Below, in pieces: positions 29,801-59,371 of a DNA stretch of 64,000 bases. Each line of letters starts with the position of its first letter. The stretch's first letter is position 1. Both the position numbers and the translations under genes were made by a program. Origin of the DNA: Amphiscolops sp. MND2022 (Eukaryota); the NCBI GenBank assembly GCA_964187785.1, contig OZ076409.1, forward strand, positions 69,504,001-69,568,000, read 5' to 3'. The notes beneath the pieces were generated by a model. The model was not told the DNA's origin, searched no databases, and was given only the letters and a program-made list of their open reading frames with translations.

Positions 29801-31721
29801 CTCTAGCTTAAAGTGTTGATTTTACTCCAAACACCTACTGAAAAACTTATGACGTAGCAATACAATCGAGAATTGTTCAAGACTTAAGTTAGAGCACTTT
29901 TTCTCATGGGAGCGGCTCACTATGCAGACGGTTGGGGGCGGTGCACTAAGCCGACGGTTCACTGAGCCGACGGTTAACTAAGCCGACCGTTCACAAAGTC
30001 GACCAAGTAAATTCGTTACATAAATTTTAATTCTTTAAAGAGGTTAGCATATCTGTTGTATGACTCGGTCGCCTCGCTCTCTTCGCCAAGTAGCAGCATT
30101 GAGGCATGGCATATTGGTAGGTCGCTTCACTCCTGCATTTAGGGCACTAGAGGTATGTGGCCATAGCTGACTACGTTATCGTAATGTTCGATTGACGCTA
30201 TTCGGTTTACATGTACACGCATTTGGAATGTGTATTTGTCCAATCAAATTTGAGAATGAATTTAATCGCGCGTTCAGAATGATATTTATCACGCGCTGAG
30301 AATGAATTTTATTGGTCGGCTTAGTGAACCGTCTACATAGTGAGCCGCTCCCAGACGGTTCACTGAGCGGACCAAATAAATTCATTCTCAGCGCGTAATT
30401 AAATTCATTTTGAACGCGCGATTAAATTCATTCACAAATTTGACTGGACAAATACGCAATCCAAATAATAGTATATGTAAACAAAACAGCGTCAATCGAA
30501 CATTACGATAACGTAATCAGCTATAGTCACATACCTCTAGTGCCCTAAATGCAGGAGCGAAGCGAAGCGGAGCGACGTGCTATATGGCCATGCCTCAATG
30601 CTGCTACTTGGCGAAGAGAGCGAAGTGACCGAGCCATACAACAGATTTGCTATCCTCTTTAGAGAAATAAGTTTATTTATTGAATTTACTTGGTCGGCTT
30701 TGTCAATCGTCGGCTTAGTGAACCGTTGGCTTAGTGCACCACCCCCTTTCTCATTGATTCATTTAGTTTTTGGGTTGTTACATTTTTTCTTCCCTAATTT
30801 TTGTTTTAAAAATTACACCCCTGTGATTAACCATGTAGAGAGTCACTTTGTCAGTTATGGGGTTTAAATGAAACGACAAGCCATGTGGAACAATGTCCTA
30901 AACAAGAAACTTGATGAATGATTGAAGGATGCTTGTCAGTGTGAATATCTCAACAACTATTTGGGATTATTAGAAAATTAAACGCTACTTCCGTTTTTTG
31001 ATGACCGTAATGCTTCGAGATCAAACTTGATTGAGTTAACTGTTTGAACTTTAGTTATACATGATTTATATATGTGGTCATCCATGATCATCCATGGCAT
31101 CATGGCTTCTCACCCACTGTCATCCATGCATCGTGGATATCTTTCGATGATCATGGAATAATCCTCAGCATGGCAAACCAATGGAAGGAATACCAAAGCC
31201 TGTAAACCTGGATGGTTACAAAAAAATGAACTCATACTCTTCAGCGAAAGGAGCCAAATTAATGTTTCTTCGATTGCATCGTTGATGAATTTTCTCATTC
31301 AAGCATCGCTGAAGTAATTCGATAGTTTTTTGTATTGAAAACTACGAAATGCAAACGCCAAAACACCTGATTCGTGTCTGTCTCTCACTTTTAAATCATA
31401 GTTGGAGCTGAATTTCAGTCTTGTGACGTTTTTCGATGGTTGGTTGAAATCAAACATGTACAATCCAGGGTCTTTGATAGCACTCGTGTTGTGGAAACCT
31501 TCAAGCTTATATCCTGACGTCATTATTGCGACTCCATTCGGCAGAACTACTATCTTTTCGGCTCCGAACTCAATTCCTTCAACTACTCGACAAGGACCAG
31601 GGTAGTGGTTGTATAAAACTCTTTGCAGACCCAGACTATTGTAAATGTCGAAGAAATTGTAAACTGCTAAGGAAAGAATGAGAATAAAAAGCGGAGTAAC
31701 TGCTTTTCCGCAAAACGTCAT
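20845..31721 (-). CDS. PON: Paraoxonase/arylesterase (Ca-dependent six-bladed beta-propeller lactonase), complete, ~374-376 aa. Exons 31721-31389, 30897-~30820, ~29575-29341, 21411-21207, 21122-20845
   Basis: Spliced translation is collinear with PON1 as recalled: N-terminal hydrophobic helix, C42, E53 (GAE), H115 (PHG), H134 (VNH), N168/D169 (INDV), N224 (PNG), D269/N270 (VDNI), H285 (THP), SQVLRL, LLIGSV, C353 (VHCE). Introns 1, 3 and 4 are GT-AG with consistent phases (0, 0, 1). The intron 2 junction is ambiguous (see findings). Confidence 0.93.
21565..22664 (+). repeat. BEL/Pao 5' LTR
   Basis: Direct repeat of 27756-28855 with roughly 15 differences by eye. Three short GTGAACTTTGC..ATCAACATGGCCG units at its start. 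Confidence 0.97.
22692..27726 (+). pseudogene. gag-pol: BEL/Pao gag-pol polyprotein (Gag, 3 Zn knuckles, PR, RT, RNase H, IN), disrupted
   Basis: KLPKLDLPSFSG; CPFC..H..C, CFNC..H..C, CRHC..HH..H; LLDSGA; FYVDD; FCDAS/ELCAA/WSDS/NPAD; IN HH-CC, DFAGP, SDNGTNF, GLWEAG. Frameshift near 22960 and a rearranged/deleted segment at ~26200-26457. Confidence 0.95.
27756..28855 (+). repeat. BEL/Pao 3' LTR
   Basis: Direct repeat of 21565-22664. Confidence 0.97.
29908..30746. mobile_element. MITE (GGG-initiated TIRs, 8-bp TSD TTTCTCAT) with a second, inverted copy of the same family nested inside (29934-30352, TSD AGACGGTT)
   Basis: TSDs read directly: 29900-07 = 30747-54 and 29926-33 = 30353-60. Termini GGGAGCGGCTCACTA and GGGGG(C/T)GGTGCACTA. 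Confidence 0.9.
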
Positions 31722-31951
31722 TTCCTGAACGTTGCAAAGACACCGGTTAACAATGAAATGTTCTTAGAAAGCGAATTGCTGCAATTACATCGTTTGATAC
31801 ACAAATTTTATTCATCAAGAACAGCGATTTTTTGAGCGGTTGATTTGTTTCAACAAGATCGGATACTTCTCAACCCCAGGGAGCCGGGCCCGTTTTCCAA
31901 GTGATTTCCAAATTCTATCGAATGCAGCAAATCTACAAGTAACTTGGAACC

Positions 31952-32219
31952 TGTACTGATCTACATTAATAACCAATAGTATTTAGATGTTTATAGAATG
32001 TTCTAGAATGTACATTTATTTGTTATTGAATGATTGTAAATCTCTACTCCTTCAGAGAGAGAAAACTAATAATCAGTATTCAGTTGACTTCCTTTTTGTT
32101 CTACTCCTAACACCTCGGAATAGTTGTAATAAAGTAAGCTAGCTAGCCTGTCTCTCAGCCGCTTTTAGTAGTTGCGTATAAGACCATAAAAACAATAACC
32201 AACCATTAAAAGCAGCACA
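31952..32219 (+). repeat. Gypsy 5' LTR
   Basis: Identical to 49615-49882; TG...CA termini; contains AATAAA. Confidence 0.97.
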
Positions 32220-32460
32220 ATTTGGTGCGACTTGTAAAATTTTTCTCTTGTCCTTTCTCCTGGATGATTTCTCTTCTCTCAACAATCATACAAATACCAC
32301 TCTCCATATTTGAAATTCTCTGGAATTGCAGTGAAATCTTTCTAGAATTTCTTGAAAGTTTGGTCTGTGACTTTCTAAATTTCATTAACAAATACATCAT
32401 CGTTCGAAACACAATTTCTCCACTACAACAATCAATTTTAATATAACAAAATTTCTTCAA

Positions 32461-32790
32461 TACCGGTTTATCACGTTCTCTAACACGTTGACACGGTTCT
32501 TTTTCCTGTTCTTCTAGCCATACCGGTTTATCACGTTTTCTAATACGTTGAAACGGTTTCATTTCAGACTGATTTATCCATTGTGACACAGTTCTGTTTT
32601 TCTTCTTTTTCCAGACTGATTTATCCAAAGTGACACAGTTCTGTTCTCCATACTGATTTATCACAGCTAATCCGGAAGCTTGTTGAAACAGTTCCTTGAT
32701 GCTTGTCTGGTTTATCAAGGTTTTCTAACATCTTTGACACAGCAACATTTGTCTGGTTTATCAAGGTTTTCTAACACCTTTGACACCGCA
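32461..32790. repeat. Short tandem duplications (60-, 47- and 47-bp periods) in the provirus leader
   Basis: TACCGGTTTATCACGTT x2; CAGACTGATTTATCCA..GTGACACAGTTCTGTT x2; TGTCTGGTTTATCAAGGTTTTCTAACA.CTTTGACAC x2. Confidence 0.85.
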
Positions 32791-34151
32791 CCTTTCTTCA
32801 ATCCTGCTATCTTGAACGTCAGGTGGACTCCTGGTGTAATAGTTGACTGAGTGCATGTCTAACTCCGTTCACCTATAAGCACATACGTCTCAAGATCAAC
32901 TTCGTGTTGGCAGAAAACCTGGATTTTCTACTTTTACATTTCGGATCCCATTTCTACAAAATTTCCTATAAAAAAATTTCAGAAATAGACTCTGAAAACA
33001 AAAACAGGCAACCAAGACTAACTACCGAAAACAACCACGCACTATTCCCTTTCTTTCCCTATTGTCGACAAACAATACAAATAAATTCACAAAACTTAAA
33101 TAATACACATAACTCCAAAAAAATGTTTTCACCAATCAACAAAAATAACAATAACAAATAAACTCAAACTTCCCTTAAGTACTTCTAATAATAATAATAA
33201 TTTTAACATAAACCTATAAAACCATTCTTTTAACAAAATACAACATACAATTTTCACAACTCTTTTGCTTTAAAACTTAAAATAAGGCAGCTAAATAAAA
33301 CAAAGAAAGTAAAGTTAGTTTTCTACTTTCAGGCACCCACAATTCCTATTCCCTCCCGTAAGACTTAGCCAATCAGATAGCCTCACCAGCGTACTCTGAT
33401 TCTAAGACTGACTAAAAACCTTAGTTAAGTGTAAACGTCTTTAAGGAGAATCGAGAGGACACCGAACTACGTTCGAATCTTCAAAATTCTCAGGAAGTAA
33501 AAGTAAAAGTAAAAGAAACAAAGATCAAATTTTGATCTTGATCAGTATTGATCAGACTTTAGATAGTGGACGTTGATTGTTCAGAGTTCCACTCCTTTAG
33601 TCTTAAAACACACAACCCACTTAAAATTAAAACAATCTTAGTTTTTCTGGACGTGTCAGTAACCTTATGTTAGACACCTTAAAGAGATCCAGACTTAAAA
33701 TAACATTTAGTTTCTGTTAGCAATCCTTTGAGGTTGAATACAGATCCTATTGCAACCGCTTATTTCTTCTCTATCCCAAAATATTAACTTCTCAAATAAC
33801 TTCAAATTACAATACAACTTTTATGAACCCAAACCAAGAAATTTATCCTTTCAACTTTTACATTCCACCAATTAGCTCTCTTCAAAACCCTACACCAGAC
33901 GATTTTGAAAGATTAATTGAACGATATCAACGATATTTCTTCTATATCATAAATCAACAAAGAAATTACCCAAGAGCTCGAACTTAGAAAATCTTTATAT
34001 AAAACATTCTAACGTTATAACTTTCACATTACAACATGTGGGAAAAGGTTACAACAGTAGTACTCATTACAACATACAAGTTTTGTGTCTTATTTATAGT
34101 TTGTGTTCTTCTTGAAAAAATACTTACAGTGATAAGAGATAAACTTTAAAA

Positions 34152-37100
34152 ATGTCTTCAACGACAACCCCTCTACCTTTCCAAATTCCCACCATTAAAA
34201 ATGCAAAAGTTGTAAAATTAGAACTAAACCCATTTCTACAAAACATTCTTTCACATTATACACAACCACTCCCATTTGAAAATGAACCACACACAATTGA
34301 AACAATCCCTCTTATTAGAGAACATTTGGACACATACCTTTTCTATATTAGATATAAAGTTTTAACAATCACCGAAGAATACCCAACTTTTCAAATATCT
34401 TTTCCTCAACAAAAATTTAACTCATCTCATATATACAGAAGAACAATAAACCCAATAAACCTTCAAGTTCCTATTAAACAAGTCTTTCATGCTTTTCTAA
34501 ATAATGTAAAAGACCACAATTTAGCACACGAAATTCCAAAATATAGTCCAAATGCACTCGACGATCTTCAAAGATACATAGACAATTTCGACGTAGAAAC
34601 TATTGAAACATTGGTTAATCCTGAAAACAATCCTCATCATTGGTTACAAACTGATATATTACGAATTCAAAATTTCATCTACCACTACTTCAAAGACCTA
34701 ACATTAAATAACCAAACAATTCCTCAGATCAAAGTAATATCTTTATTTCTTAGAAAATATTTCAGATTTGATTACCAATTATTATGGTCTCAACAAGATC
34801 AACCTGCTTTTACAGAATTCCCAGATCATTTTACATCAGAAGAATGTTTACCATTCATTATCAGCGAACAAAATGAACACCCTTATTTTCATAAACCACA
34901 ATTAATTACAAAACAAACCTTAGATTACATACGTTTCGATCCTCTATTAATTACAGAAAATGATCTATTCCCAGATAATAGACCTTACCACTATCAACAA
35001 AATTCTCAAGATCAACAAAATTTACATTTTAACACCAACAATTCTACTGAAGACGATAACACCGATCAAGAAAATACAACCCAACAACAAAATCAACCTG
35101 AAAACTATAACGATAATGAGTTTACTACCCAAGAATCTACAATTTCAACACATAATCCATCTTAAACAGGGACATCAACATCAGTACGTACTTACTCCTT
35201 TAGAGTTCCAACTAGAGTTATAAATCAAGGACAAAATATTCATAGTCCTCAATCTCATTTAGATACATCTCCAAACCGTAATATAACTTTTAACCTTCCA
35301 CATACAGATAACATAAACGATGAAACCCATGATATATTACAATATGATACTATGACTACATCTAGTGCTCACAATACTTCTGTTAATGTTGCATCCCCAA
35401 CAAGAACTACCTCTGATTCTACAAGATACATTACTCGACCTAGATATGATCCTCCATCAATTCCCTCCGCCTTTCGCTCAAACAGATCGACCACTTCTAG
35501 CAACAATTTTAATGATAATCCTCAAACTTCCAACCGATATTACGATCCATTTATTCATAACTTTTATCCTCCATCAAACACAACTACCAATACGAATATA
35601 AGCCAAAACCACTCTCAAATTAATACAATTTCAACAACACAAAATCCCTTCATACAATTATCAAATACCAATACGTCCCAGAATATACATTCTCAAACTC
35701 GAGGAACCTCGTGTACTTCCATTTCTTATTCTAATATTACACAGAATTCTCAAAGAAGACTTCATAATCCTCCACTCACACATATACCAACTGATCCTCT
35801 GTATCAAACGCATTCAAATCCAAATCTTAACCCTAATCCTAACCCATTACCATCAAATACAATCCAACATATACCTCCACCACTCACACAACAATTAGCT
35901 CCGCCACCCTAATATTTCCCAATGCCGCAAGATACCTTTATAAACATGTCCGCTTCAATACCAGAACCTATGAAACCTTTTGATGGTTTGGACCTTTCTT
36001 ACACCCCTGAAGAATATCTACAACAAGTCGAAGCAAGATTAATTTTCGCCATAGGTGAAGAACCTCAAAATAATCCTATAAAATACAAATCTTGGCATAA
36101 TAGACGCATGGCTTACATACAATGTTCATTAATAGGAACAGCTCTCGATTGGTACACTAACCTCCATATATCATATAAACAACAATGGAATTCCTTTGTA
36201 CAACTATTTAAAAAACAATTCTCATCTCAAAAAACTGCTTACTACGCTCAAGTAGAAGCTATGTCACTCATGAAAAAGGATAATGAAACAGTTCGCCACT
36301 TCGCCCTTAGAGTACAACAATTAGTTAAAAAGGGATGGTGTAATGAAAATGCAGCTACCATAAATCTCAAAAATAACGAAATCTTTACAAAAGGGTTACC
36401 AAAGAAATTAAAAGATTTTGCCCATAAACGACAAGTTAAACATGTATCAACATTACTTGAACCTTCAATACCATTTCATACACTTGTTAGACATGTCGAT
36501 TCAGAAGATATTGCTAATGAAAAAATCAGAACTAACGACTTAGCCTTAGAAATAAACAAAGTATCGCTTGAAGAAGATACTAACAAAAAAAAAGTTGAAT
36601 ACGAAGATCAGATAATGGTTACTCAAACTGGAGACCCAAATAACAAAAGCAAACCAGCGTATAGAAAATATTGTTCATATTGTCATAAAAATAATCATAG
36701 TATTTCAAATTGTTATCAAAAACAACGTGATGACGAATACCAGAATTACAATAACCAAAGATCACGAACTCCTCAACAATCCTTTGTACAATATTTCCGT
36801 AGTAAACCTAATAATCCTCAGGAAAATCGGAATGAAAATACAACTCTTATTCCTCAGATAATGATCGTAATAATAACAATCAAAACTACTATAATGATAG
36901 ATACAAAAACAATGATAGATATCGTAGCAATAGTAGAGAATATTCGCAAAACAACTATAGATCAAACTCTCGACAAAGATATCATAATCGATCCCGAAGT
37001 CCGTATAGATCTCGATTTGATAATTATTATCAAAGAAGAACTCCATCTAGATCTCCATATAGATCTCCATACAGAAATAACTCAAACTACAGATATAATT

Positions 37101-40100
37101 CTCGCTCAAGATACAGATCTCGTTCTCAATCACAAGGAAACTCCTTTAAACGATATAATTACCCATATAGATCTCCATCAAGACCTAGAGATTTTAGATC
37201 AAGATCTAGAACACCCTCAAGAAACAGACAACAAAACAGAATAAATCAAGTAGACGTTAAAACACCAAAAGAAATTGATAGTACAAAATTTGAAATCCAC
37301 ACCTGTCAAATGACTGAAATAGCTAATACAATCACCCCTTATAGTTGGTTTTATCCACTATATATTCACGCCTCTGAAACAAATGACAACATATTACCTT
37401 CAAAATTAGAAATCTTATTCCTTTTAGATACTGGAGCTTCCATATCTGTTTTGAATTTACCAACATTTCATGTAATTTCCAAACAATTAAACATCAATGT
37501 TCCAACTAACATCCAAAACAAAAGAGCCAAAACTCTTACAGTTGCAAACCAAACTGAAGTACCAATAAAACATTATATTTCGATGACTTGTTTCACTGAA
37601 GTAAATCACAAAACACGATCCTTCAATATCGATTTTGCCGTAGCAAATATCAAATACAACATTCTTGGAACACCCTTTTTCAAAAAGCACATCCAAAATA
37701 TTGATTTTCAACAAAACATTATGACATATACAGAACAACATCCAAAGCTTTCAACAAAAACTACATTTTCTACATTTACAGAAAAAGATTATCCATATAT
37801 TTCTTACATTTATACTATTAAATGTAAGGAACCAAGTCACTTTAAACCAAGGTCAGGAAAAACCATACATTTCCCAATTAAAAACTATTCAAATCTACAT
37901 TTTGAACTCGAAGATAACACGAAGTTCTACCCAACAAACCCATATACATATTTCTTACAAAAATTTAAAAATATCTTTCATTTCTTAGACATGATAGTCA
38001 ATGAAAAAAGCAAAGACTCATGTGCAACTATAATTCAAAACTGTACATCTTACCCAGCTACATTACCACAAGGAATTATTGGATATATAGAAATACCAAT
38101 TACGCAAACAACTCCTCCTCACTACAGAGTTAACGATGTAAATTCACTCATTCACTCTGTAATACATGCATATCACCCTGATACGACAACCCCGAATAAA
38201 CAAAATCCATATACAGAAGATTCTAACCAAGAACTTGAATCTTGGCCTATTGAACCTTTAGCTCCTCAATTAGCTAGAGCAAATAAAAAATACAAATCAA
38301 CTATTGATCTAATGTATGCATATGCTCATACACCATTAGATGAAGAAACAATTAAACTTACAGGGTTTTCATCCGGTGACAAATTATACGCCTTTATCCG
38401 TGGATTTTACGGATTAAAAGGACTTCCAAACTTTTTCACAAAACAAATGTCAACTTTCTTTAGATCACTTATAGACAAACGTTCTGCGTTAGTTTATATA
38501 GATGATATTCTATTACTCGCAAATGAAAAACAAGAAATGTTTGAACTTATAAAAGAATTACATACAATAGCATCTCGAGAAAATCTCAAACTTGCACCTG
38601 AAAAATCGTTCTACATGCTACTCAAAGTAAAATTCCTCGGACATGAAATTGGTAACAACACAATTAAGTCAATTCCATCCAAAATTGAAGCTATTAAAAG
38701 AATCCCATCACCAAAAGAAAAGAAAGATGTTATGCAATTTCTTGGCAGTGTTAACTTTTATTCAAAATTCATTGAAAAACTTCATATAAACCTTAAACCA
38801 TTGTATACATTACTACATGATGATGTTTAATTTCAATGGACACCTGAATTAGAAAAACTATTTCAAAATGTTAAAAACGCAATGACAGCAGATACTGAAT
38901 TAACAATACCCAACACTACGCATCCATTTTTTATAACAGTAGATGCTTCGTTAGTAGGTTTAGGCGCAGTCTTATTCCAAATGAACGAAGAAAATAAGAT
39001 GAAAGTAATCTCTTATAACTCCAGAATTCTCAATACACAAGAACAAAAACTTTCAACTTTAGACAGAGAACTTCTTGCAATAGTTTACGCATTACAAATA
39101 TATGAATTTTTGATCATTGGATCTCCTCATCCTATATATCTCTTCACAGATCACAAGCCTTTATTACATTGCTTCGCAAAGAAAAGAAATCTTAGTCCTA
39201 GATTCTACAGAGCACAAATGCAGTTAACCAAATTCTCCAAATTAAAAATCATTCATACCCCTGGAAAAAATTTAACTGTAGCAGATATGCTTTCAAGAAC
39301 CTTTACAAAAGAACAGCTACAAGTACACCAATTACGACACAAACAATTAACACCTCAAATAGATTTCTCTATCATGAAAGATAATCAACTCAAACCACTA
39401 CATTATTTATTAAAACATGAAGAAATAAAATATAATCAAAAAAAGTGATTGTCATCCTATCCTTGCTGATTACGGAGACGATCAATTCTCCATCCGTATA
39501 AATAACAAAGGAGAAGATATACATATAAAGCCTTTAGATTCCTTCTCTTTTCAATCTATTGTTCCATTCGAATCAAAATATAAAAGACCTACAAAAAAAA
39601 CAAGCAAAATCTCTTTTACAACAATCGGCAATTCTTAATGATACTGACATTTTTAGTGATGAAGATGAAATAACACCACCAAATAATATCCAACAACAAA
39701 ACTCGAACATAGTAAAAGAACATACCCTTGCTATACAATATCCTACCAAATCTGACTATTGTACACAACAAGTTCCATTTTTTGATCCGTCTTTTTTCAA
39801 ATACAAAAAGTATTTTAATTACTTCTTCCTACCAGAAGATACACAAATTACTATTGAAACAATAAAAACTCAACAAAATCAAGATACTGTTTTACAAAAG
39901 GTTTACCAATGGATACTTAATAATGAAAGACCCTTACAAATAGACCCAACAATTGCAGCTAACTCTTTCCTATTAGTATATTACAAACTCTTCAACCAAT
40001 TGTATATTAATCATGATACAAAAATTATTCACATAGATTATCCTAATCTTCACGATTCCAACCCGAATCAAAGAGACAAAATATGTTTACCATTTAAACT

Positions 40101-41643
40101 TTTCCACACAGCTTTTAACAAACTCCATGCTCATGGACATTCAGGAATAAAAATATCCATCAAAGCTTTCAACCAATTTTACTTCATACAGTACCTAAAT
40201 AAATGGATGTCAATATTCATCCATGATTGCATTGAATGTCAACAAAATAAACATATTAACCAAAAATTACAAACTGCATCTATACAAACCTTCTCAGAAA
40301 ATGCTTCATATTTTAATTACAGAATATCAATGGATACAAAAGGACCTATAAACCCACCATCAAATCAAAATTCATACATTCACGTTATAGTAGACGCTTT
40401 TAGTCACTTTGTAGTAACAGTACCCATAAAACAAAATAATGCTCAAAACGCTGTTAACTCATTACTACATCATTGGATAACAAAATTTGGACCTCCTGTA
40501 TACCTAGTTACCGACCGTGGAACAGAATACATTAATTCAGAATTTGCAAATCTTTGTACTACAATGGGAATTAGACATTCACCAAGAACTCCTTATGCAC
40601 CATGGACAAATGGTTTAGTTGGAAATCAAAACAGAAATCTTGGAACTCATCTTAGACTTTTTTTACATAACACTCCAGAAAATTGGTCAACTCAAGTCCA
40701 TATGTATGCTTATGCACATAATTCACAACCACTTTCTGAATTAAACTTATCTCCATATGAAATAGTATTCCATACTATACCCAGAATTCCCATCAACTTT
40801 GAACTCAATCTCCAAAGAGATACATATAGAAATTGTACGTCTCAATATTGTCAAGAGCTACCACTTCATACACACTATGACAAATCAAATCTAAACCCTT
40901 TCTTTCATAAAATTTTATCTAAACCAATTCCACAATGGATCTTAGCTACTGAAACTGCCATGATACAGATATACCACACGGTATATGAAAACACAAAAAG
41001 AAAGATTAATTCCTACGCTTATTTTAACAAAACATATCATAATCCAAGTCCCTTAGATATTGGTACATTTGTACTAAAAAGAAATTTTCTCCATGTTCAT
41101 TTTTCCGATAAATTAAAACCTCTCAGAATTGGCCCATTCAAAATTTTTAACAAACTCTCCGATATAACATACGAAATTGTTAATCAAGATTGTTATACAT
41201 CGCACATACATAGAAATCATTTAATTCCTTATTATCCAAAAGAACCAGTTATTATCCCTTTCATACAACAATATAACCCTCATTTATTTAATGACTGTCA
41301 TTCAAATACAAATGATCAAATAATTAACTCTGATAAAGACAAATTTACAGACGAAGAACAATTTCCTTCCACAACATTTAATAAAGAAACGGATGTACCA
41401 TCCACGATTGATTTACAATCAGAACCATTTAACCAATATTCTTCATTTCCATATAAACAAAAAGAACAAATTCCTCAAAATACCTCCCTGGATAACCAAT
41501 CAGATATTCATGATTATGACAATTTTATTAATCCCCGAAGACACTCCTATATTAGATACAATTTCCGCCCACAACCAAGAAAAGACTACCGACTCTTCCT
41601 TGGTGAAAAGGATATAATTTCACTTTCTCAAAAATCCTGCTGA
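34152..41643 (+). pseudogene. gag-pol: Gypsy gag-pol polyprotein, disrupted
   Basis: ORFs 34152, 35352 and 35922 share one frame, split by single TAA codons. Capsid-like region (MKPFDG...ALDWY..MKKDNETVRHF), CSYCHKNNHSISNC knuckle, RS/Y-rich stretch, LLDTGAS protease, YIDD RT, VDAS/ELLAI/TDHKPL/ADMLSR RNase H, HAHGH..CIEC, SMDTKGP, TDRGTEY, GPF. Lesions at ~35163, 35910, 36840, 38200 (deletion), 38828, 39445 and 39595. Confidence 0.93.
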
Positions 41644-41811: not shown

Positions 41812-43282
41812 ACACAACGATTTCAAAATTGATAGACATATTCACTCACCATCATCAACTACAAATAACTCTTCTTCTAGTTCAACACATTCACTCCAAA
41901 GATTACCTGAATATACAGCATATTTAAACACAGATACAGACATACTGGATTCCTCATCCTCAAATCCCAGTCCATCCGCTCCATATACTCCTGATAGAGT
42001 ACCAACAACACCCACTAATACACCTATATCCCAAACTCAACCACAAATATTAACAACTCAATCACAACCTAGTTCACGAAATCTAACATTTTTAGAAACA
42101 AATTCACCACTTTCTGACTCTAATGATGAAACACCTACAATACCAAATACACAAGATACTTCAGATATTTTGAATAGACCTCCTCTTCTACCGATTACTA
42201 CCACTCGTTCTATTCATATCCCTGATCCTAACTCAGTATTACAATACATAAATTCTTGTCCACACAAAGTACCAACTGCAACGAAAACAAAAAGAAAAAC
42301 TCCTTTACCAACATTACCACAAAATCTTGATTTACCATCATCAAGTAATATCCCAATAACTTTTTTACCAGAACCTTCATTAAAATCACCAACGAAAAAA
42401 TCACAACAATACCCAACTCCTTCACCATCGGAACTAAGTTCCTTCACATTTTCTCAAATATATCCCAAGCTTGAATTACAACGTGTACATTCAACAACTA
42501 CATCTTCATTAACAGACTTATATCATAAAGATAAAGACTCTGACTCAACTGCTAGTACTAGAGTACCAAGACATAATTATAACCTTCGATCTCAACAACA
42601 AAGAATTTCTCAAGAATTACAATCTTTAACTAGCTCAAGTACAAATTCAAGACTACTTCGACAACACGCTCAACCCAGATTGGACACTTCTTCTTTTTCC
42701 TCATCTCAGCCCACTATACCATCTTCTCTATCACTACCATTTCAAATCACTTCAGGATTTGAAACAGCCTCTCTTATTTCTGAAGAGCCAGCAACTATAT
42801 CAGATAGCGCAGCTAATTTTTCACGAGTTTACTCACCTAGTTCAATAGCCTCAAACTCCTCTATACAATTACCTGAATATTTTTTAGAAGACTTCTCAAG
42901 ACCTCCATCGCCAAATCCTCACGAATATCCTATTCGTGTTAACTCAAAAATTGTTCGCACGCTTAACGAAGATCCTCGATACACGGTATTACCTGCAAGA
43001 TTTATAAACAATAGTTCACTCTCAACTCAAAGAAAACAAAGAGAACTACGAAGATTACAAGAACAACAACTCACATTAAAATTTGAAGTAGAAGTCACCT
43101 TCAACTCGTTAGGACCTCATCCATTCCCTCTTTCAACAAGAGCAGCACATAAAACAACCCCATCACCATTCATTGTTACCTCCATTTCCTACCTTTGTGA
43201 CGCCGATTTACCTGAGATTAGAACAGGACATATAAACTTTTTTAATCCCTACTCAGGACTCAATTATAGATCAATATTTTAA
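41812..43282 (+). CDS. Accessory Ser/Pro/Thr-rich open frame (~490 codons, no ATG) between pol and env; function unknown
   Basis: The frame of ORF 42170-43282 stays open upstream to ~41812. Contains RHNYNLRS, resembling RYNFRP at the Pol C-terminus. Confidence 0.6.
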
Positions 43283-43284
43283 CC

Positions 43285-45860
43285 ATGAACCAAATCACCT
43301 TTACCTTTCATTTAATATATATAATACAAGTTGTTAAATACACGTATATAATAAATATAGTTCACTCTTAGTTCATCCTTCAACTGTTCCCAAAGTTGAC
43401 ACCATCAATTCCGAAAATCATATTTCAGACCAAGATCCTAACATTTTAAACTTAATGGTATCTCATTATGATTGTGCAAAACAAAACAACCTAAGACAAT
43501 TCAGTTTATTAAACGTAGAACCATGTAAACAATCACCCTCAGATATACAACACACAAAAACCCAAGCAACAATTTACGTTAGAGCAAAAGCCAAAAGAAT
43601 AAAAGCCTTTAAATGTGAAGCATATATAAAGACTGAGAAAGTCTGGTGTTCACAAACATTCACATCTAGTAGACGATATGATCGTTTACAATGGGGACAA
43701 AACACATTAGAACTTCCAAAAATATTGGACCCTATTGAATGCAAAAATATGATCAGATATTTAAACGCGACTGATAGCGAAGAATTAAACAACTACAATA
43801 TACAAAGCTCTTTCTCATTGTTCGATGATAGTAATTATCAAAACACAATTGAACGAATTCAGACACCATTTAGAGTAAAAAAATTAAATACATGGCATAT
43901 TGGAACCTTCGTATTTGACGAAAATTATCCTGATTGGATAGTTAACGTTACACAAAATACATACTCTAGATGTCGATCAGACCGCGAACATTTAATCACC
44001 CGACAAAGTTGGAAACTTAGAATTGTTAACACCGCAATAGATTATGACGATAAAAACAATCAATTAATACATGACGGACACATATTACCATGTTATCATT
44101 CAGATGGATTTTGTAAACCAACGACCAAAACTCCATATACATTAACATTGTTTGATGAAAAATTTTGCCTCATATTTCAACTTCAAGAATTCATTGGTAG
44201 AATGACACGAATCAAAGATAGATATTGGATAGAAACCGATACCTTTATTGAAACTTCAAACATCACACAAAAACTTCAAACTGAAGGAATACAAGGAACA
44301 AAATACCCTAATATAAAAACAACAAAATCAAAAGTAAGCAATCCAAGCCTTTCCTGATTTGAAATATACCCAATTGCACAAACTTTCTGTGGAAAACCTG
44401 AACCATTATTTTCAACACAATATGATGAAATCTTTGTTACATACTTAGATGGTTTTGATATGAATACAGGATTACCAAAACCACACTCAATAATTGACCA
44501 AACAATTAGTGGAAATATAAAATATGATGATTCAAACAAAAGGTATATATTCCCTGCATTGAATATATCAAACAATTTCGCCACTTTAGACTATGATGCC
44601 CACATTAATACAAAAATTGATTTCACAATAAATCATGTATTTAAATCCATGACAGTACAAGAATTAAACACTCTACATAAAATATGTGAACTAGAAAGAA
44701 CTCAACTGTTAACAATACTAGCAATGTCAGTTAAAAATCCTCAATTAGCCGGTTTTCTTTTAACTGGAAATCGTAGTAACTTTCTCTACGTTGAAGGATC
44801 TACAGCATGGCTGTATGATTGCCCTCATTTTATATCACCACTATACAAGGCAGATAAATGCTTTGATAGAATTCCTATACACTACAGAGAAACGATAAAG
44901 TATGTTGACCCAATAACAAGACAAACTTTTAACTACGCAACTCCAATTGAATGTGGAAATAACCCACAAAATATAATAGAATTAGATCCAGATTCTAACG
45001 ACGGAGATTTTTATGTGTTAACACCAGAACCACTCAAACGAGAAGCACCACAAATGTTTAAACCTACCCAAATTAAAACGACAATCACTCCTAATACATT
45101 TACCGCCCAAGATGCCGGTATAAACTCAAATGCAGAATTAGATCAATTCTGGAATAGAGTATTATTTGCTAAACATTCAGATACAACTCTTCAATTACTT
45201 GGAAAATCATTAAGCTATGATTTCATTTCAATGCATAACGAAAAACACTCATACTCACAACATAATCCCTACAATCATTTAAGGATTGGAGTACATGACC
45301 ACTTGTTAAATCTTTTACCACTTTTTAACCCTGACTGGTTCAGTCAAGCATTCATTAAATTCTTTGGATATCCATGTTATGTTTTAACCCAATGTGGAAT
45401 TTATTTCTCAACATTCCTTTTCATTAGAGAAGTTTTAACATTTTTACTCAAATTCTACAGAACAATTAGCATAAAATATAATCTCCAAAGCAATATTTCC
45501 ATTTTGAGTTCAATAGCCCATGGATTTTTTAATATAGTTACATCGGAAATGGTAACCGATTTAAATAATACAGGAAAACGAAAACGGATATATACTAAAC
45601 ACAAAATTACAACAAGTGAAAATGATAATATCCTATTGCCGGAAAAAGAATTGAACAATAAACGAAGACACTCTGATACTGACTCCCCTTATTTACCTCC
45701 TAAATATTCCAGTAAGAATTCAACATTTCAATCACCGCAAAAGACACACCCAACTAATGTAAACGATATTAATTCTCAGGACTATGACCCAATTATGTCA
45801 AATGTAATAGCTGTACCGGAAAGTCCTGCTAAAGTCTTTATAAAATTCAATCCCTCCTAA
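43285..45860 (+). pseudogene. env: Envelope glycoprotein, class III fusogen-like (chuvirus G / herpesvirus gB family), with one frameshift and one premature stop
   Basis: Hydrophobic leader from ATG 43285 (frameshift ~43345). HYDC..FSLLNVEPC..KCE..WCS; ICELERTQLLTILAMSVKNPQLAGFLLTG..EGSTAWLYDCP..CFDRIPI..YVDPITR..IEC. C-terminal hydrophobic segments and tail; N-glycosylation sequons. ORFs 43455 and 44460 share a frame, split by TGA at 44355. Confidence 0.85.
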
Positions 45861-46281: not shown

Positions 46282-47576
46282 ATGGAATCCTTGCCCGAAA
46301 TTGATGTAGTTAATTCTAATCCCTCTGAATTGCTTGCAACCCCTTTTAAAATATAACTATTCAACAAAATGTTAACGAAGATAATAACTCTTCCTCCAAC
46401 TCTCAAGATCCTATAGAGAATATCCCTATTGAACAAGTAGATCATGTCAACACAAGATCTCAAAAAAGAAAGTACCCAGATATAACTGCAGATAAACCTT
46501 TTATGGAATCTGGCGCTTGCCCTCCTTCCACAAAACCAATTAAACAAGATGAAGATAGAGATTGTGAATTAGTTCCTATTCTCTCGTCAAAACAATTCAC
46601 ATTTCAATCTCAGTTAACTTCGTTATACATGATCCCAACAAAATACAAATTCATCATCAGAGAATTTAAAAATGATTATCATACATCAATTGCTTCAAAA
46701 CTGATTACCCCATATGATTGGTGGTTAAACAATAAAGTGAAAATTTTCTCACTTCAATACAACTTCCTCAGACCATCTCCATATGATCTCCGAACAGAAG
46801 AAAATGATGCAAATTTTTTGCCATATCAAATCAAAAAGGCCCACCATATGACTTATCAAAAGTTCCTTCAATATAAAGAGCCCGATAATTATATATTCTT
46901 CAACTCAAAATATACATCGCCATTCACTTTCAACTCAGAATATTTAACAGATCATACCAAAACAAAAGGAAAACTTAGAAATTATGACCCACTGAAACAA
47001 AGTTTTCTCTTCCTTCCAAATGATAACCCAAAAAGACCAATCATTGTTCCACAAGAATACCTCATTCTAAACGACGATTCGTTACTACAAGAAGATATAC
47101 CTCAACATATATCTGATCCTCTTCCTCCACTTCAACAAATAGCCTCTCAACCATTGGGAGACTGTGAAAAGTCTTATTTTCACGCAATGATCAAACAGGG
47201 ATATTCAAACAATGAATTAATTTTCATTATTTCCCACTTGCTTTCACTTCTTACAAATGGAAATCACAAAGAATATAAAAAGGCAAAACAAGAATCGCCT
47301 AAGAAAACCAAAAATGATATTCCTCAACCACAAAGCTTTCGCCCAACAGATGAATTACAGAAATATACAGAAATTCTGAATATCATAAAACCGTATCATC
47401 ATCCAAACCGAGATATTCTTATAACAATCGCTGAAATCGTAAATACCCTTGAACAAGCTCGAAGCATAATACAAAATATCGTATTTGATACGACAAGAAT
47501 TAGCCAATCAGCTTTGTGCATTCGCACATCTTTAGACGAATTCAACTACACTATTGAAAAAATGCATCGATCTTAA
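46282..47576 (+). CDS. Accessory ORF downstream of env (357 aa intact part 46503-47576, probably ~430 aa originally); unknown function
   Basis: Long sense-strand ORF inside the LTRs. The frame is open upstream of 46503 and reaches ATG 46282 through a 1-nt shift in an A run near 46350. Confidence 0.65.
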
Positions 47577-47982
47577 CTGGTAATTATGGGATAAAAGCTT
47601 TAAAGTTATTAACACTTATCACTTAATCTTTTAACAACCTGTCAAAAATAATTGAATCTACACGCATATGCCTGCTATGCATGAATTTAATATTTACTTG
47701 ATGTTAAAATACATTTTTAAAATGAAATAACAAAAAAATTTCAATCACGACATAAAAATTTTCAACGAAATTCTTCAATTGCTCCTCCTTTTAATGGACC
47801 GATTTCAACAAATAAGTACTTATATGAAAGATATTTAAATACCCTTCAAAAGACTTCCAAAATACAACAACTTAATACTTAAAATTAAAAAGTTATAACA
47901 TCACAAAATTCAATAAAAAAATGTCAACTACGAAATTCTATTTTCAAAGGAACTTTATTGTAAACAAACTAATCTATTTTAG

Positions 47983-48574
47983 GAGAATATCGTCACAACT
48001 GCTTCTTCCGCATTTCTTCCTTCTCTCAGGTCACCCATTCAAGAAGAATTCCGAAGTATCCTCTACAGCTTTCAACGAAATTTTCTCATTCTTCAATATG
48101 ACAACTATCCACTCTGGCGACATTGACTGCCCGATAGCTCCTTTCCTTTAAATCTCTTCAGCTCGATTGCGATCCTTGATCCTGAAAAAGCATTTAACGA
48201 CATTAAATGCGCAGCTTCGAACAGAAAAAAAGGCTGACCCACATCTCACAAGGATGATATTGCTTAATATGTTCCAAATATTCCAAATAACAAGAATAAA
48301 TTTCGACCAATATCTCCATATTCATAAACATCCTGACACTTATTCAACTCAAAAGGATGCCACTACACAAACGGAACATACTACAATCAAACCCAAGCGT
48401 TTACTACGAACCCTATCCAATAGAATGCGTTACGAAATGGAAAAACAACGTCTAAATTCATATTGGCCCTCAGATGACAATGATGACACTGACGAAGACC
48501 TTCAAAAAGATCACCCAGAAGCACTTTTAGACGATAACTATCCACATAAAACATATACTTACGTTTCCTTCTAA
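47983..48574 (+). pseudogene. Further degenerate accessory ORF/exon; unknown function
   Basis: Follows an acceptor-like ctattttag. Protein-like reading (ENIVTTASSAFLPSLRSPIQEEFRSILYSFQRNF...) with a stop and a shift into ORF 48167-48574. Confidence 0.4.
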
Positions 48575-49614
48575 CATCATCAGACGCCACCAACAGCACC
48601 CGTCAACTCTCATCTTCGAATTCCACATCTTCTACGAGCAACAGATCAGCACCCATCTTCAATTTCATCGCTGCCCAACAGTTGCCCACCTTCATTCATC
48701 TGCTGACCCTTCTTCTTCCATCTTCCCATCGTCCATCATCACCCACATGCTCAGCCGAAGATGATCGATAATTAATAATAAAGAAAACTCAAAGAAAAAA
48801 CACTGTGCATGATAACATTTCGAAAACTTTCAAACTCATCTAATATTTAAAGAATTCAAACTTTTACCGAAATTATTAATTATGTAGTTACTATTTCAAA
48901 TTTCATCCCCACCCATATTTATTTGCCCAAAAATCTTTTATTCATACCCATACCGATATTTATTTGCTTTACTTTTAAAGAATAATTAGTAATAATCATT
49001 ATTTTTCGGTGCTATCCTATCCAAAAAATTCACAAATATTATCAACAAATGTTTTCAAATTTCAACAAAACCAACTCAAAATCAGATCAAGCACATTGTT
49101 CAGATTAAATTTGAATAATGACAGACCCAAATTCTCAAAGTTTTCAACATTTGTTACATAACAAACCCGCCAAAGTTAATCACAACCTGAAATTTTTTCA
49201 AACGTATTTCACGTTCAAAAATTTTTCTTTCTCAACAATATTATTTCCTTGACTCTTTGACCTTTAACTCGTATGATGTTTGCTCACGTTTGTTCAATGC
49301 GAAGTTCATTCAAAACTTCAACAGAAGCATAAAATTGAGCATCTACCAGTTCAAAAAACAAGCCGACGAAAGCATAGTGAAAAAGAACACTTTGACGCTT
49401 TTTGAACTGTAGTCGCACCTACGAGGTGTCAATCAAAATTTTGACAATTCGAGGTACACCAATGAGTCGAACTACACCACTTTTAATGAGACTTATGCCA
49501 ATCATACATCAAATGAAAAATGTAAACTAGCTGAAACGCTAAGAACATTTAAACAAAAAATTTTTCTTCATTTCATGATGCTACTTTGGATTTTTATTTA
49601 AAAACCGGGATGGA

Positions 49615-49882
49615 TGTACTGATCTACATTAATAACCAATAGTATTTAGATGTTTATAGAATGTTCTAGAATGTACATTTATTTGTTATTGAATGATTGT
49701 AAATCTCTACTCCTTCAGAGAGAGAAAACTAATAATCAGTATTCAGTTGACTTCCTTTTTGTTCTACTCCTAACACCTCGGAATAGTTGTAATAAAGTAA
49801 GCTAGCTAGCCTGTCTCTCAGCCGCTTTTAGTAGTTGCGTATAAGACCATAAAAACAATAACCAACCATTAAAAGCAGCACA
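49615..49882 (+). repeat. Gypsy 3' LTR
   Basis: Identical to 31952-32219. Confidence 0.97.
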
Positions 49883-49977
49883 AACCCATGATGAAAAACA
49901 AGTTTGGAAAACGTTCAAATAGTATTTGAAAATACCTCCTTGGGAGCTTTTCATATTCATAGCGTTCTGAAATATTG

Positions 49978-53603: not shown

Positions 53604-56423
53604 CTCACAAAGTTGGAAGAAAAAGTTTCTAAAATTCTCTACTTGAATGTGCAAGGTCTCTTATCGTTCCAAAAATGTATTGATTTACAAAAGCTTTATC
53701 TGACTGGTTCATACGATTTGATGCTGTTATGCGAAACCTGGTTTGACGAAAATGTTGAATCGATTATATTTCCTAATGACATCCCAACAGTCCTGAATCG
53801 AGCGGATCGGAAGGATGGTTCACATGGTGGTGTGGTGATATGTTCGAATACTTTGGATACATCTCCGGTCAAAACAAATTTCGACTTCGGTTGCGCTGTT
53901 ATTTTCCAGAACTGCTTGGTGATAGTTATTTATAATCCTCCCCTGACCAGCAAATACCGGATAATGGATAAACATCTCCTCAATTTTATTAAATCGGTTA
54001 TTTGCAAAGCTTTTTGGTCGGTCGAGAAAAATATCTTAGTGTTAGGCGATTTCAATATCCCTTCGATTAATTGGGCACTCTTTCCCGCTCAAATTCCCGA
54101 GGAGTACTCCGAAGTTTTCAATTTCTTCATTCACAATGGCTTTGATCAATTAATTCATCAAACGACCCATGACGGAGGCAATATTCTAGACCTTTGTTTT
54201 GCAAACTTTGACATTCAATCAATCTCTGTGTCGGGAAAAAATTTCCAGTCTGACCACTTCGGAATAACTATTATTTTAGAAACTTTTCATCTTAAAAAGT
54301 GGGAAATGCCTCAATCCAACTCAACCTTCTCCCTTACTCCAGATGCGGTGGAAAACATAAAGCTTGACCTATCTGACAATATATTTTCAATGGTACAGCC
54401 AAATTCCGAATCTACTTATAGCCAGAATTGGTTCGATAATTTCGACGAAATTCTGAAGAAACACATGAGAAAGAAACGTCAAAAGCGTTTGAATCTACCG
54501 TTCTATTACACTTCGCATTCGATTCACCTTTATAATCAATTGAAAACCCTTGCGTCTTCAACGAAAAATTACAACATATCAAAATTTATGTCAGTGAAAA
54601 AAGGCCTCTTGGAGTCTATTGAGTTGGATATCCATTGTTTTGTTAACCATTTTGTTAGTAACAACACGAGAATGCATGACTGTTATAATCTAGTCAGATC
54701 TTTCAAAAATTCTTCGTCCTATCCCTCAAAAATGACATGGGAGAAAAAGAATTTCTCTGGTAAACCTGATATTGCCAATGCTTTCAACGACTTTTTCTTT
54801 TGCCAATATCAAGAATGTTCAACTATCAAAAATTTCAACAACTTCGATGAATTAGAATTGAATGATGTTGAAATCACTCTAGATGAAGTGTACTCAGTTC
54901 TAAACTGTTGCACGAATGGAACTGGACCGGATGGTCTTTCTGGGTTTCTACTGCGACAGATTTCCAACGAATTTAGCATTCATTTTCTTAAATTGGCAGA
55001 ACACATTCTCAGTACATCAATTTTCCCTGCAAACTGGAAAACAACTTTCATTAGACCAATGCACAAAAAGAAATGTAAAACGGTAATCGAAAATTACAGA
55101 CCTGTAGCATCTTTATCCCGTCTTTCAATTTGTTTTGAACGGCTCCTTTTTAAAAAACTTTATCCCCACTGCTCAAAAAAGATATCCCATTTACAGCATG
55201 GGTTCATGAAAAGCAAATCGATACAATCCCAATTGTTAATTCACTTAGATTACATATACAACAACCTCGACAGAGGAGATGAAGTTTTCACAGTTTATCT
55301 TGATTTCAGCAAAGCGTTTGATCGTGTTGATCATGAGATTTTATTGAAAAAGGTTGCCAGTTTTGGGATTGGTGGCAATATACTCAAACTCTTGAAAAGT
55401 TATCTCGAAGATCGTGAACAACGAGTTAAAATTGACGACTGTCTCTCAACTGCCCTTCCAATCAAAAGTGGTGTCCCCCAGGGCTCGGTTATTGGACCTT
55501 TATTATTTTTAATCTTCATTAATGATTTGCCTGGTGTTTGTGTCGACTCAATAATGTTACTCTTTGCAGACGATTCGAAAATCTCAAATGCTGATCCCAT
55601 TGAACTCCAGAATGATCTTATAAGGATTTATAACTGGGCGAAAGCAAATAAAATGGAATTCAATAACACGAAAACTGAACTACTATGGTTTACTCTTCAT
55701 CGCTATAAAATTTCTGATAGACGTGTATTGGTCTTTGATTCTAAAGATATTGAGTTTTCTACGGTCCCTATTAAAGATTTGGGTATCAATTTTACGTCTG
55801 ATTTGAAATGGTCAGCCCACATCGATGTTCGTATTAGAAAAGCTTTTTCACGATTCATGATGTTAAAGCGGTCCTTACCGACTACCTTACCGGCTAATGT
55901 AAAATCACAAGTTTACAAACTTTATATCCTACCAATAATCACCTATGGATCAGTCCTATGGTTTCCCAACAAGACTGATTTATCGAAATTAGAAGTCTTT
56001 CAAAATAAAGTTATTCGTTGGTTTGGACTTATAGATGATTATAAGGATCGGTTATTAGCCCTAAATTTGCTTCCCTTTTCTCTGCTGTTTCAGTTGAACG
56101 ACCTCCTATTCCTACATCAATGTATTGTGAACGATTCTCCGATATGTTCAGGACTGCTCTACAAAGAATCTCTCCGCCATTATGACACCCGATTTTCATC
56201 ACGAAAACTTCTCTTTAAAAAGAAAACAAGACTGAAGTCCACTGACAGCTTTTTCATAAACAGAGTTGTTAATCTAGCTAATTTCGTATCATCGAAATTC
56301 GAGATTGACTTCTTTGACACGACCTCATTTAAGCCTAAACTGAAAAATATTTTCCGAAACTACCTTAAATATGGCTATGATAAATCGGATTGTAGAAGGT
56401 TTTTGAAGTGCTATTGCTGTTGA
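53604..56423 (+). CDS. LINE ORF2: AP endonuclease + reverse transcriptase, uninterrupted (~940 codons)
   Basis: YLNVQG, CETWF, GGV, YNPP, GDFN, LDL, SDH; NYRPVA, QHGF, DFSKAFD, GVPQGSVIGPLLF, FADD, KDLG. Confidence 0.95.
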   Translation, partial: LTKLEEKVSKILYLNVQGLLSFQKCIDLQKLYLTGSYDLMLLCETWFDENVESIIFPNDIPTVLNRADRKDGSHGGVVICSNTLDTSPVKTNFDFGCAVIFQNCLVIVIYNPPLTSKYRIMDKHLLNFIKSVICKAFWSVEKNILVLGDFNIPSINWALFPAQIPEEYSEVFNFFIHNGFDQLIHQTTHDGGNILDLCFANFDIQSISVSGKNFQSDHFGITIILETFHLKKWEMPQSNSTFSLTPDAVENIKLDLSDNIFSMVQPNSESTYSQNWFDNFDEILKKHMRKKRQKRLNLPFYYTSHSIHLYNQLKTLASSTKNYNISKFMSVKKGLLESIELDIHCFVNHFVSNNTRMHDCYNLVRSFKNSSSYPSKMTWEKKNFSGKPDIANAFNDFFFCQYQECSTIKNFNNFDELELNDVEITLDEVYSVLNCCTNGTGPDGLSGFLLRQISNEFSIHFLKLAEHILSTSIFPANWKTTFIRPMHKKKCKTVIENYRPVASLSRLSICFERLLFKKLYPHCSKKISHLQHGFMKSKSIQSQLLIHLDYIYNNLDRGDEVFTVYLDFSKAFDRVDHEILLKKVASFGIGGNILKLLKSYLEDREQRVKIDDCLSTALPIKSGVPQGSVIGPLLFLIFINDLPGVCVDSIMLLFADDSKISNADPIELQNDLIRIYNWAKANKMEFNNTKTELLWFTLHRYKISDRRVLVFDSKDIEFSTVPIKDLGINFTSDLKWSAHIDVRIRKAFSRFMMLKRSLPTTLPANVKSQVYKLYILPIITYGSVLWFPNKTDLSKLEVFQNKVIRWFGLIDDYKDRLLALNLLPFSLLFQLNDLLFLHQCIVNDSPICSGLLYKESLRHYDTRFSSRKLLFKKKTRLKSTDSFFINRVVNLANFVSSKFEIDFFDTTSFKPKLKNIFRNYLKYGYDKSDCRRFLKCYCC

Positions 56424-57826: not shown

Positions 57827-59371
57827 CTCTAGAGTGATTAATTGTGCGCTATATAAATTATTAGGATATGCTTCTATTACTGAACTTGAAAGCCTAAAAA
57901 CAGAAAAAATACTGTGCCCCCGCATACTTTATATACAGTATATACATACATTTATATAAAAAATAGGTTGATTTAAAGTTTCATGCTCCACGTTACTGAC
58001 ATTCATTGAAGAACTGTAAGATTAGTAGGAGAAATTTGAGCGAGATTAATCTTTTGAATGAGAATATTTTCGTGTTGATTGAAAACGTGGGTTTAGAGGA
58101 AAAGGGGGTACTAAATTCCATAAAATGGAAGGGTGCGCATCTTCCAAAACTTTGGTTTTTTCCGCCCATAATTCTATGTCAAACAAAATTTATTGAGCTG
58201 CGTCTTTCTTCCAAAAATTGTCCTTTTTAATATTTTCTACCGCGTTTCTTCCACAAAATACAGGTTAGACAAGAAGTTAGGTTCGTAGCATTGGTATTTC
58301 CAATATTTCCAAAGATTTCCGAAGTTTAATAAAAATGATGAGAACAAAACGACACCAGAATAGTCAAATTTTCCAATTTTTAATCTTTTTTAATCAAAGG
58401 TTCTGTGAAAAGTGTCTCAAAATACCCCAAATTAAACCAAAAACCCAAAAACGTTCAATTTATGATCAGTTTCACCAATTAATAGCAATTTCTGTACAGT
58501 TTCCGAATTTTCAAGGAGTAAAACTTCCATAGAGTTCCACGATGCAAGAATTGGCTATTCATAATGTTTCTTCGAAAAAATCGAATGCTTCTTATTTAAA
58601 AAATGCAGCTATGCTACAAAAAATGAAAACTTTCCTTCGATTTCGATTGTTACATTGGTTTTCCGAAGAATTTCAAATGTTTTTATGAGAATGAACATCT
58701 ACAAACAAACGTAACATTGAATACAACACTTTCACATCCTAGGCATTGTTTTTGGGGAGACGTTTGGAGTTTGAAAATCATCAAAAAATTGCCAAAAAGG
58801 CAAATTTCATGGTGAACTTTCGAGAAAGTGAAATTTATGTAGTTTTTCTGGATGTGTTAGTAGGCCACACTATGAACAAAGTTGGACGACAAAATGAAAA
58901 TCTGCTTAGCAGACTTTGAGAAGGCAAAAATGAAGGTTTTTATATAACGAAGCCTCGAAGAAGTATTCCAGAAGCAAAAATGGCATTAATTTAAGATTTT
59001 GTGACTATTACCATGCATAGCGTTCAAACACAAAACTTTGTATCATACTTTCAGTTTGTGTTGAACATTGAGCATCCACAAACTTTAGAAGAATAAACTA
59101 AAATGCTTTTCGTTTTGGCGGAATTTTCCGCTTTTTTTCCATCGACGATGTGTGTGAACTGAACCAAACTGCTTGAAATTTTCATCTAAATGTTTGATGT
59201 TTTGTTGGTTATTCACAAAGGTGGGAACTGAAAATTTGCCTTTTAAAAATTAATTGAAAATTTTTTCTCGAAAAGAAATCCCATACTGACCTTGGCACAA
59301 ATTGAAAAGAGAACGTCTAGCTTTTAAAAGCTAGACGTTTTCTTTATAAAAGAAATAACGTTTTCTTTATA

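Follow-up and report, generated by a model that had tools for sequence, protein, structure and literature searches.

The window, the whole 64,000-nt stretch of contig OZ076409.1 from Amphiscolops sp. MND2022 that was analysed, contains a Ty3/Gypsy element of 17,931 nt (~17.9 kb; Table 1). Self-comparison of the window reveals a single LTR pair around the env region, and the two LTRs are identical. The order of the genes between them, gag-pol, ORF3, env, ORF5 and ORF6, is common to subfamilies a–f of the family to which the element belongs. A 4-bp TSD is found in all five copies of which both ends were read, namely the window copy and copies of subfamilies b, d, e and f. Across its full length the element shows a strong skew of C over G. 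The position of the polypurine tract, inspected also in loci L070, L074 and L083, is not purine-only and keeps its CCGG core across subfamilies; plus-strand priming of the family may be unusual. Like ORF3 (see below), the 1.9-kb 5' leader (32220–34150) is poor in ATG, with about ten in 2 kb.

Table 1 Features of the Gypsy element, in positions of the window
Feature	Position	Strand	Remarks
TSD AACC, left	31948..31951		4 bp
5' LTR	31952..32219	+	268 nt, TG...CA, identical to 3' LTR
PBS-like TGGTGCGAC	32223..32231	+	Present too in subfamilies b, d, e, f
gag-pol	34152..41643	+	Retrotrans_gag, PR, RT, RNase H, IN; broken in window copy
ORF3	41813..43282	+	Met-less, S/T/P-rich, conserved ~140-aa C-terminal domain; open in window copy
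Candidate ORF3 start CTG	41945..41947	+	Conserved; A at -3, G at +4
PSAP motif, ORF3	41972..41983	+	5/6 subfamilies
YPxL motif, ORF3	42461..42472	+	6/6 subfamilies
YNLR motif, ORF3	42578..42589	+	6/6 subfamilies; like foamy-virus Gag chromatin-binding peptide
env, predicted class III fusogen, gB/chuvirus-G type	43285..45860	+	Membrane anchor from ~45370
PPxY, env cytoplasmic tail	45696..45707	+	6/6 subfamilies
ORF5	46282..47576	+	~430 aa, no family; frameshift near 5' end in window copy
ORF6	47876..48574	+	~150-200 aa, no family; internal stop in window copy
Polypurine-tract position	49600..49614	+	Atypical, contains CCGG
3' LTR	49615..49882	+	268 nt, identical to 5' LTR
TSD AACC, right	49883..49886		4 bp

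By its domain order and set of Pfam domains, the backbone of the element is Ty3/Gypsy and not BEL/Pao. The pol shows the domain order PR-RT-RH-IN together with the ADMLSR and GPF motifs, and the Pfam matches of gag-pol follow the Gypsy order Retrotrans_gag, RVT_1, RT_RNaseH, Integrase_H2C2 and rve. Retrotrans_gag, RT_RNaseH and Integrase_H2C2 score above the Pfam cut-off; the matches to SH3_Tf2-1 and Integrase_p58_C are weaker and fall below it. In addition, the BEL/Pao families Peptidase_A17, DUF1759 and DUF5641 are absent from the Pfam matches of the pol, and all three appear in the true BEL element of the window, which served as control. The initial annotation had called the pol Gypsy-type from ADMLSR, GPF and a 4-bp TSD, and this assignment is borne out. 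A Troyka element, for which CG...CG ends and a 3-bp TSD are expected according to the accessible part of PMC12440569, was rejected, since the element instead has TG...CA ends and a 4-bp TSD. The BEL/Pao element itself is located at 21565–28855; it has ~1.1-kb LTRs that are 98.6% identical and long open pieces of pol, and no env-sized ORF was seen in it.

Of the genes in the window copy, only ORF3 is open; gag-pol, env, ORF5 and ORF6 are all broken. Its gag-pol contains stops, frameshifts and a deletion of ~550 nt in RT at ~38220. Among copies chosen because their env frame is open or long, and thus not a random sample, gag-pol is a single open ORF of 2653 aa in four of five from subfamily b and is broken in all five others from subfamily a. 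The C-terminal half of env has 108 scored matches in the genome, all 97–100% identical, 52 of which carry a full-length open env frame by hand count, and a search with the LTR gave 1,631 first-look candidates, 40 of them scored and all at least 99% identical; these totals are not copy numbers. Comparison of 30 close copies yielded 611 private and 135 shared variants, a predominance of private changes that fits a burst followed by decay. The window copy is coding-dead, having decayed after a recent burst. Four further diverged subfamilies, with env 54–64% identical, are also multi-copy. Altogether the genome contains six or more subfamilies of this family, and in many of them env frames are open. 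The family as a whole shows the features by which an HSV/gB-type errantivirus has been defined operationally in print, namely LTRs that enclose a Gypsy gag-pol and a gB-type env, in intact elements present in multiple copies, the window copy itself being broken.

Several minor features of gag-pol were also recorded. Ahead of the capsid domain, gag (34152–35900) possesses an N-terminal extension of ~580 aa, whose first 350 codons have a dN/dS of 0.18 and no Pfam match. A low-complexity stretch rich in Arg, Ser and Tyr (36840–37250) separates the zinc knuckle of gag from the protease. One subfamily-a copy (L043, G000:C3) has a 1.5-kb segment of gag tandemly repeated threefold, with long reading frames kept. 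A 209-aa ORF in an alternative frame within gag was discounted as a shadow of the main reading frame (dN/dS 2.25).

The ATG of env at 43285 opens a signal-like peptide whose frame differs from that of the remainder, the frameshift lying near 43370; further on, a TGA at 44355–44357 interrupts the reading frame. With this stop rendered as X, the product has 840 residues. The motifs reported in the initial annotation are largely as described: CELER-x12-NP-x2-A, CFDRIP and P-x-T (as DPIT) are exact, and the spacers in YDC...SLLNVEPC and G...CP are 9 and 7 residues rather than 8 and 6. The Cys scaffold, membrane anchor and cytoplasmic tail noted there are also found: 14 ectodomain Cys columns are shared by at least six of the seven envs in the alignment, and behind the ectodomain come a membrane segment, another hydrophobic stretch and a tail of ~136 aa. 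No furin motif (RxK/RR) occurs in any of the seven envs checked. Env matches the Pfam family PF24664 (Monjiviricetes_fusion) with an E value of 1.2e-23 and 83 bits against a cut-off of 27, which indicates that the motif pattern did not arise by chance.

The AlphaFold2 model of env, built from 52 sequences, contains a central helix of 45 residues (mean pLDDT 70.5, pTM 0.45). In a Foldseek search of the PDB with this model, all matches listed are herpesvirus gB (best E 1.9e-10, 9–10% identity). In BFVD, the best named matches are the G proteins of chu-like, xinmo- and related negative-strand viruses (E 1e-25 to 1e-22, 12–14% identity), and herpes gB first appears at rank 44 (E 6e-10). An independent aligner, VIA, found nine of 48,161 chains at Z≥5, all of them gB or rhabdovirus G; the Z values are modest (≤8.9), with domain IV of PRV gB at Z 8.8 (rmsd 3.4, 156 aligned). 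The putative fusion loops at the tip of domain I have a pLDDT below 50, contain aromatic residues and are weakly conserved. Sequence searches of the PDB with env and two env profiles gave nothing significant, tblastn against phages gave no match, and the leads from an Atlas search with env were all below 0.9 and mostly clusters of viral glycoproteins; cluster look-ups yielded no names. From the Pfam match, the AlphaFold2 model, Foldseek, BFVD and VIA, the env product is predicted, with little room for doubt, to adopt a class III fusogen fold of the gB/chuvirus-G type. This proposal of the initial annotation stands because the predicted fold is class III and the best matches are viral, not cellular.

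Between subfamilies a and b, dN/dS is 0.09 for env, 0.12 for ORF3, 0.10 for ORF5 and 0.15 for ORF6, the last with dS near saturation, and these values indicate purifying selection on all four genes. The last 190 codons of ORF3 are particularly constrained (0.04).

ORF3 spans 418–490 codons from stop to stop and is devoid of Met in all six subfamily representatives. Each of the six contains a CTG with A at -3 and G at +4, a strong context, and homology between subfamilies begins at this codon; in pol, CTG is scarce, accounting for 2/198 and 1/232 Leu codons (~1%). Subfamilies a and b have a further in-frame ATT upstream, also in strong context. No hairpin was detected downstream of the CTG in the five cases tested (z -1.5 to +0.5). 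Moreover, ORF3 contains only 1–4 ATG in all frames per 1.2–1.3 kb, compared with eight or more in each of the 1300-nt windows examined across three gag-pol ORFs. At synonymous sites of ORF3, the ratio of NAT to NAC is 8:20 before G and 167:96 before other bases (four subfamilies pooled; p 5e-4, an optimistic value because the six subfamilies are not independent, a being close to b and d to f), and the opposite lean before G, 451:109, is seen in 11 control ORFs. A few out-of-frame ATGs remain in ORF3, which, like the missing hairpin and the upstream ATT of subfamilies a and b, counts against leaky scanning. The combination of the CTG and the avoidance of ATG is the signature described in the accessible text of PMC3542737, in which viral non-AUG initiation with leaky scanning leaves an AUG-poor first ORF, and points to leaky scanning here. 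The cases in that part of the review, rice tungro bacilliform virus, aquareovirus FAST and MLV glyco-Gag, likewise have a non-AUG, AUG-poor first ORF and leaky scanning to the downstream gene; they belong to other virus groups, whereas the leaky scanning of the element is read from sequence alone. ORF3 probably starts at the CUG, with scanning continuing to the AUG of env. In such a mechanism, a bicistronic message would carry ORF3 and env; some ribosomes would initiate at the conserved CUG and produce ORF3, and others would scan past it to the env AUG. Splicing and an internal promoter, which both occur in Tor elements according to the available sections of PMC4402516, are two ways in which the message could arise.

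Three short motifs of ORF3, PSAP (missing in subfamily c), YPxL and YNLR, are kept in a region that is otherwise 32–44% identical between distant subfamilies. Short Pro-rich motifs arise randomly in such sequence, and shuffles give a chance rate per sequence of 0.03–0.06 for PSAP and 0.13–0.18 for YPxL. According to the accessible parts of the respective papers, P(S/T)AP binds TSG101 and YPxL binds ALIX (PMC6874086), and GGYNLRPR is the chromatin-binding peptide of foamy-virus Gag (PMC6021111). In env, the PPxY of the cytoplasmic tail is likewise present in every subfamily, and among 21 distant env relatives a late-domain-type motif occurs in the short tail of 12 and in the much longer ectodomain of two; composition accounts for part of this excess because the tails are rich in Pro. 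ORF3 may be a particle-associated helper that recruits ESCRT and perhaps binds nucleosomes too. It is conceivable, at somewhat under even odds, that PSAP and YPxL in ORF3 and PPxY in the env tail bring in ESCRT, and that enveloped particles would then bud and move between cells, probably into the germ line. The order of ORF3 before env may resemble that of negative-strand viruses, in which the matrix gene precedes the glycoprotein gene.

ORF3 might alternatively be a spliced exon or a readthrough tail of pol, in which case the CTG and the lack of Met would have another cause, for example a DNA or RNA signal around CTGGAT. Spliced env messages are common in Gypsy elements, such as Tor3a (PMC4402516, in part), pyrimidine-rich tracts with AG lie near the ORF3 start in some subfamilies, and Met is scarce in the elements of this family generally (~1%). 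However, no AG is present from the upstream in-frame stop to the CTG in subfamilies c, d, e and f, the stop lying only 6–8 codons upstream in the latter three, and the AG sites downstream of the CTG differ between subfamilies in place and phase, which argues against an upstream exon. Splicing into ORF3 would also leave the avoidance of out-of-frame ATG unexplained, and we regard this explanation as improbable. The YNLR motif raises a different possibility, namely that ORF3 is mainly a nuclear factor that binds nucleosomes, to target integration or counteract silencing, rather than a budding factor: flanked by Arg/His in all six subfamilies, it matches the foamy-virus peptide GGYNLRPR in the portion of PMC6021111 available, and a similar motif is found at the end of pol. 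Against a mainly nuclear role, PSAP and YPxL are kept in ORF3 as PPxY is in the env tail, and the coupling of ORF3 to env translation suits a particle protein; such a role is doubtful rather than improbable, and nuclear and budding functions are compatible, as in MLV p12 in the literature covered. We favour, with a probability of about 0.7, the reading that the region is the broken env of a 17.9-kb Gypsy element and that its predicted gB/chuvirus-type fusogen would be translated from a message shared with ORF3, some ribosomes initiating at the CUG and others scanning to the env AUG.

The initial annotation had further suggested that the env was captured independently, and such a capture of a chuvirus glycoprotein by the element or its immediate lineage would be in line with the BFVD search, in which chu- and xinmovirus G proteins are far ahead of herpes gB (E 1e-25 versus 6e-10). 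In addition, the env family has no obvious match, as compared by eye, to the host-group alignments in the part of the PMC13524379 supplement covered, and the accessible text of PMC4402516 leaves room for separate gains of env by tunicate Tor elements. The sequence relationships speak otherwise. A profile search recovered full-length env relatives at 23–33% identity, and identity to viral G is 12–14%, as against 23–30% to full-length unnamed proteins, one of which lies in a Gypsy element with a related pol. This element, L093 (13 kb), is the only one of 11 metagenome loci recovered that is long enough to show its context, the other ten showing no pol; it consists of gag, a Gypsy pol 36% identical to that of the family, an env of the same family (~28%) and two accessory ORFs. 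The finding of one env family both here and with the related Gypsy pol of L093 leaves a capture special to the window element unsupported. The integrase and env trees of the six subfamilies contain identical unrooted groups, (a,b), c and (e,(d,f)), and the placement of L093 is unsure because of its long branch. Together with the pairing of pol and env in L093, the congruent trees indicate that env has long been associated with the pol lineage. Moreover, no relative was confirmed in scans of viral_contigs, and PMC13524379 argues for an ancient association of env with Gypsy elements. As judged from these comparisons, env has very probably descended with the pol lineage for a long time instead of having been taken recently from a chuvirus. 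A recent capture is thus unlikely, and independent capture by the element or its immediate lineage is given low odds; in the deeper lineage, an ancient capture separate from that of other errantiviruses may have occurred.

In L093, the two accessory ORFs after env (9651–12095) are paralogous (35% identical), end in C-terminal coiled coils and are unrelated to ORF5 by profile, and L093 contains no homologue of ORF3 or ORF5. Profiles of ORF3 and of ORF5 found no homologue in any of the metagenome loci (L093–L103). PDB sequence searches with ORF5 and with the C-terminal domain of ORF3 gave nothing significant, nor did an Atlas search with the latter; Pfam has no family for ORF5 or ORF6, and the predicted model of ORF5 (pLDDT 40) is unusable. 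The 120 ORF5 relatives listed of 294 are all unnamed ENA proteins without Pfam match, except one fusion of env and ORF5. A candidate new subfamily, P0066, was rejected as an env-ORF5 deletion fusion.

Gypsy elements with this type of env have been described before. The survey of Chary and Hayashi (eLife 2026; PMC13524379) documents gB/chuvirus-type env on Gypsy elements, with 221 ENV_HSV entries and 114 arthropod gypsy elements carrying a Chuviridae-like glycoprotein, so that the combination is already published. The initial annotation took BEL/Pao elements to be the main known carriers of such envs, a view not supported by this survey, in which gB-type env is found on Ty3/gypsy across many phyla; the accessible part of PMC10084718 had recorded only fragmentary Gypsy associations. 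Like these HSV/gB-type errantiviruses, the element has a Gypsy pol, LTRs, the order gag-pol-env, multiple copies and a class III gB-like env with conserved Cys. It differs from them in its length of 18 kb, in ORF3 within a pol-env gap of 1.3–1.7 kb, in two ORFs after env and in the likely CUG start. This gap exceeds the 1000-nt prefilter of the survey, whose later manual steps reached 3–5 kb. In the parts of PMC13524379 covered, the list of host groups does not include Xenacoelomorpha, and acoel-related terms occur zero times in its seven supplements.

Mosquito BEL/Pao elements such as Anakin carry the same Pfam glycoprotein type in an LTR element (accessible parts of PMC7642597 and PMC10084718), whereas the pol of the present element lacks the three BEL/Pao families. 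Chuvirus and xinmovirus G and herpesvirus gB share with env the predicted fold, the central helix, the Cys scaffold and the C-terminal anchor; env differs from them in its low identity (9–14%), in the missing furin motif and in being borne by a retroelement. Oikopleura Tor3b and Tor4b have a furin-cleaved env, and the text available from PMC4402516 mentions no ORF in the space that corresponds to ORF3. That additional ORFs can lie between pol and env, or behind env, is known in general (PMC6431247, in part). The literature covered, which excludes subscription journals and Repbase, yielded no CUG-initiated or leaky-scanned ORF and no ESCRT late domains in gypsy env regions. The layout gag-pol/ORF3/env/ORF5/ORF6, with its genes under purifying selection, was not found in print and appears new; its new part is likely the conserved accessory gene just ahead of env, with its candidate CUG start and putative scanning on to env.

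Particle production and release by gB-type Gypsy elements are an open point in PMC13524379, and several components of the family lend themselves to testing: a candidate budding protein, a putative inbuilt control of the ORF3:env ratio, and many young copies in one genome. More speculatively, the family may represent a complex retrovirus-like Gypsy lineage in an acoel, in which a CUG-initiated, matrix-like protein with late domains and a class III glycoprotein would share one leaky-scanned message, two further conserved accessory genes would follow, and infectious particles would still be made; we hold this only tentatively. If the host is an acoel, the family would also bring in a further phylum, one relevant to the question of whether Gypsy elements with an env are older than the bilaterian split.

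The remainder of the window contains host and repeat sequences. Exons of a paraoxonase/arylesterase-like host gene are located at 31299–31763, 29263–29634 and 8401–8799, all on the minus strand, the first exon being duplicated at 8.4–8.9 kb; the single database relative of the neighbouring host exon is an acoel paraoxonase-like protein (47% identity), and on this one match the host would likely belong to Xenacoelomorpha. The Gypsy element lies ~230 nt upstream of the likely start of one paraoxonase-like copy, head to head with it. A LINE-type ORF of 939 aa (53604–56423) shows endonuclease-like and RT-like motifs by eye, and 1.3-kb direct repeats, 95% identical, surround a BEL-like integrase remnant (3729–4337) at 1440–6944. 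A tandem array of a 173-nt repeat occupies 59270–60260, and several perfect palindromic inverted repeats are present elsewhere in the window, for example at 61310–61561.
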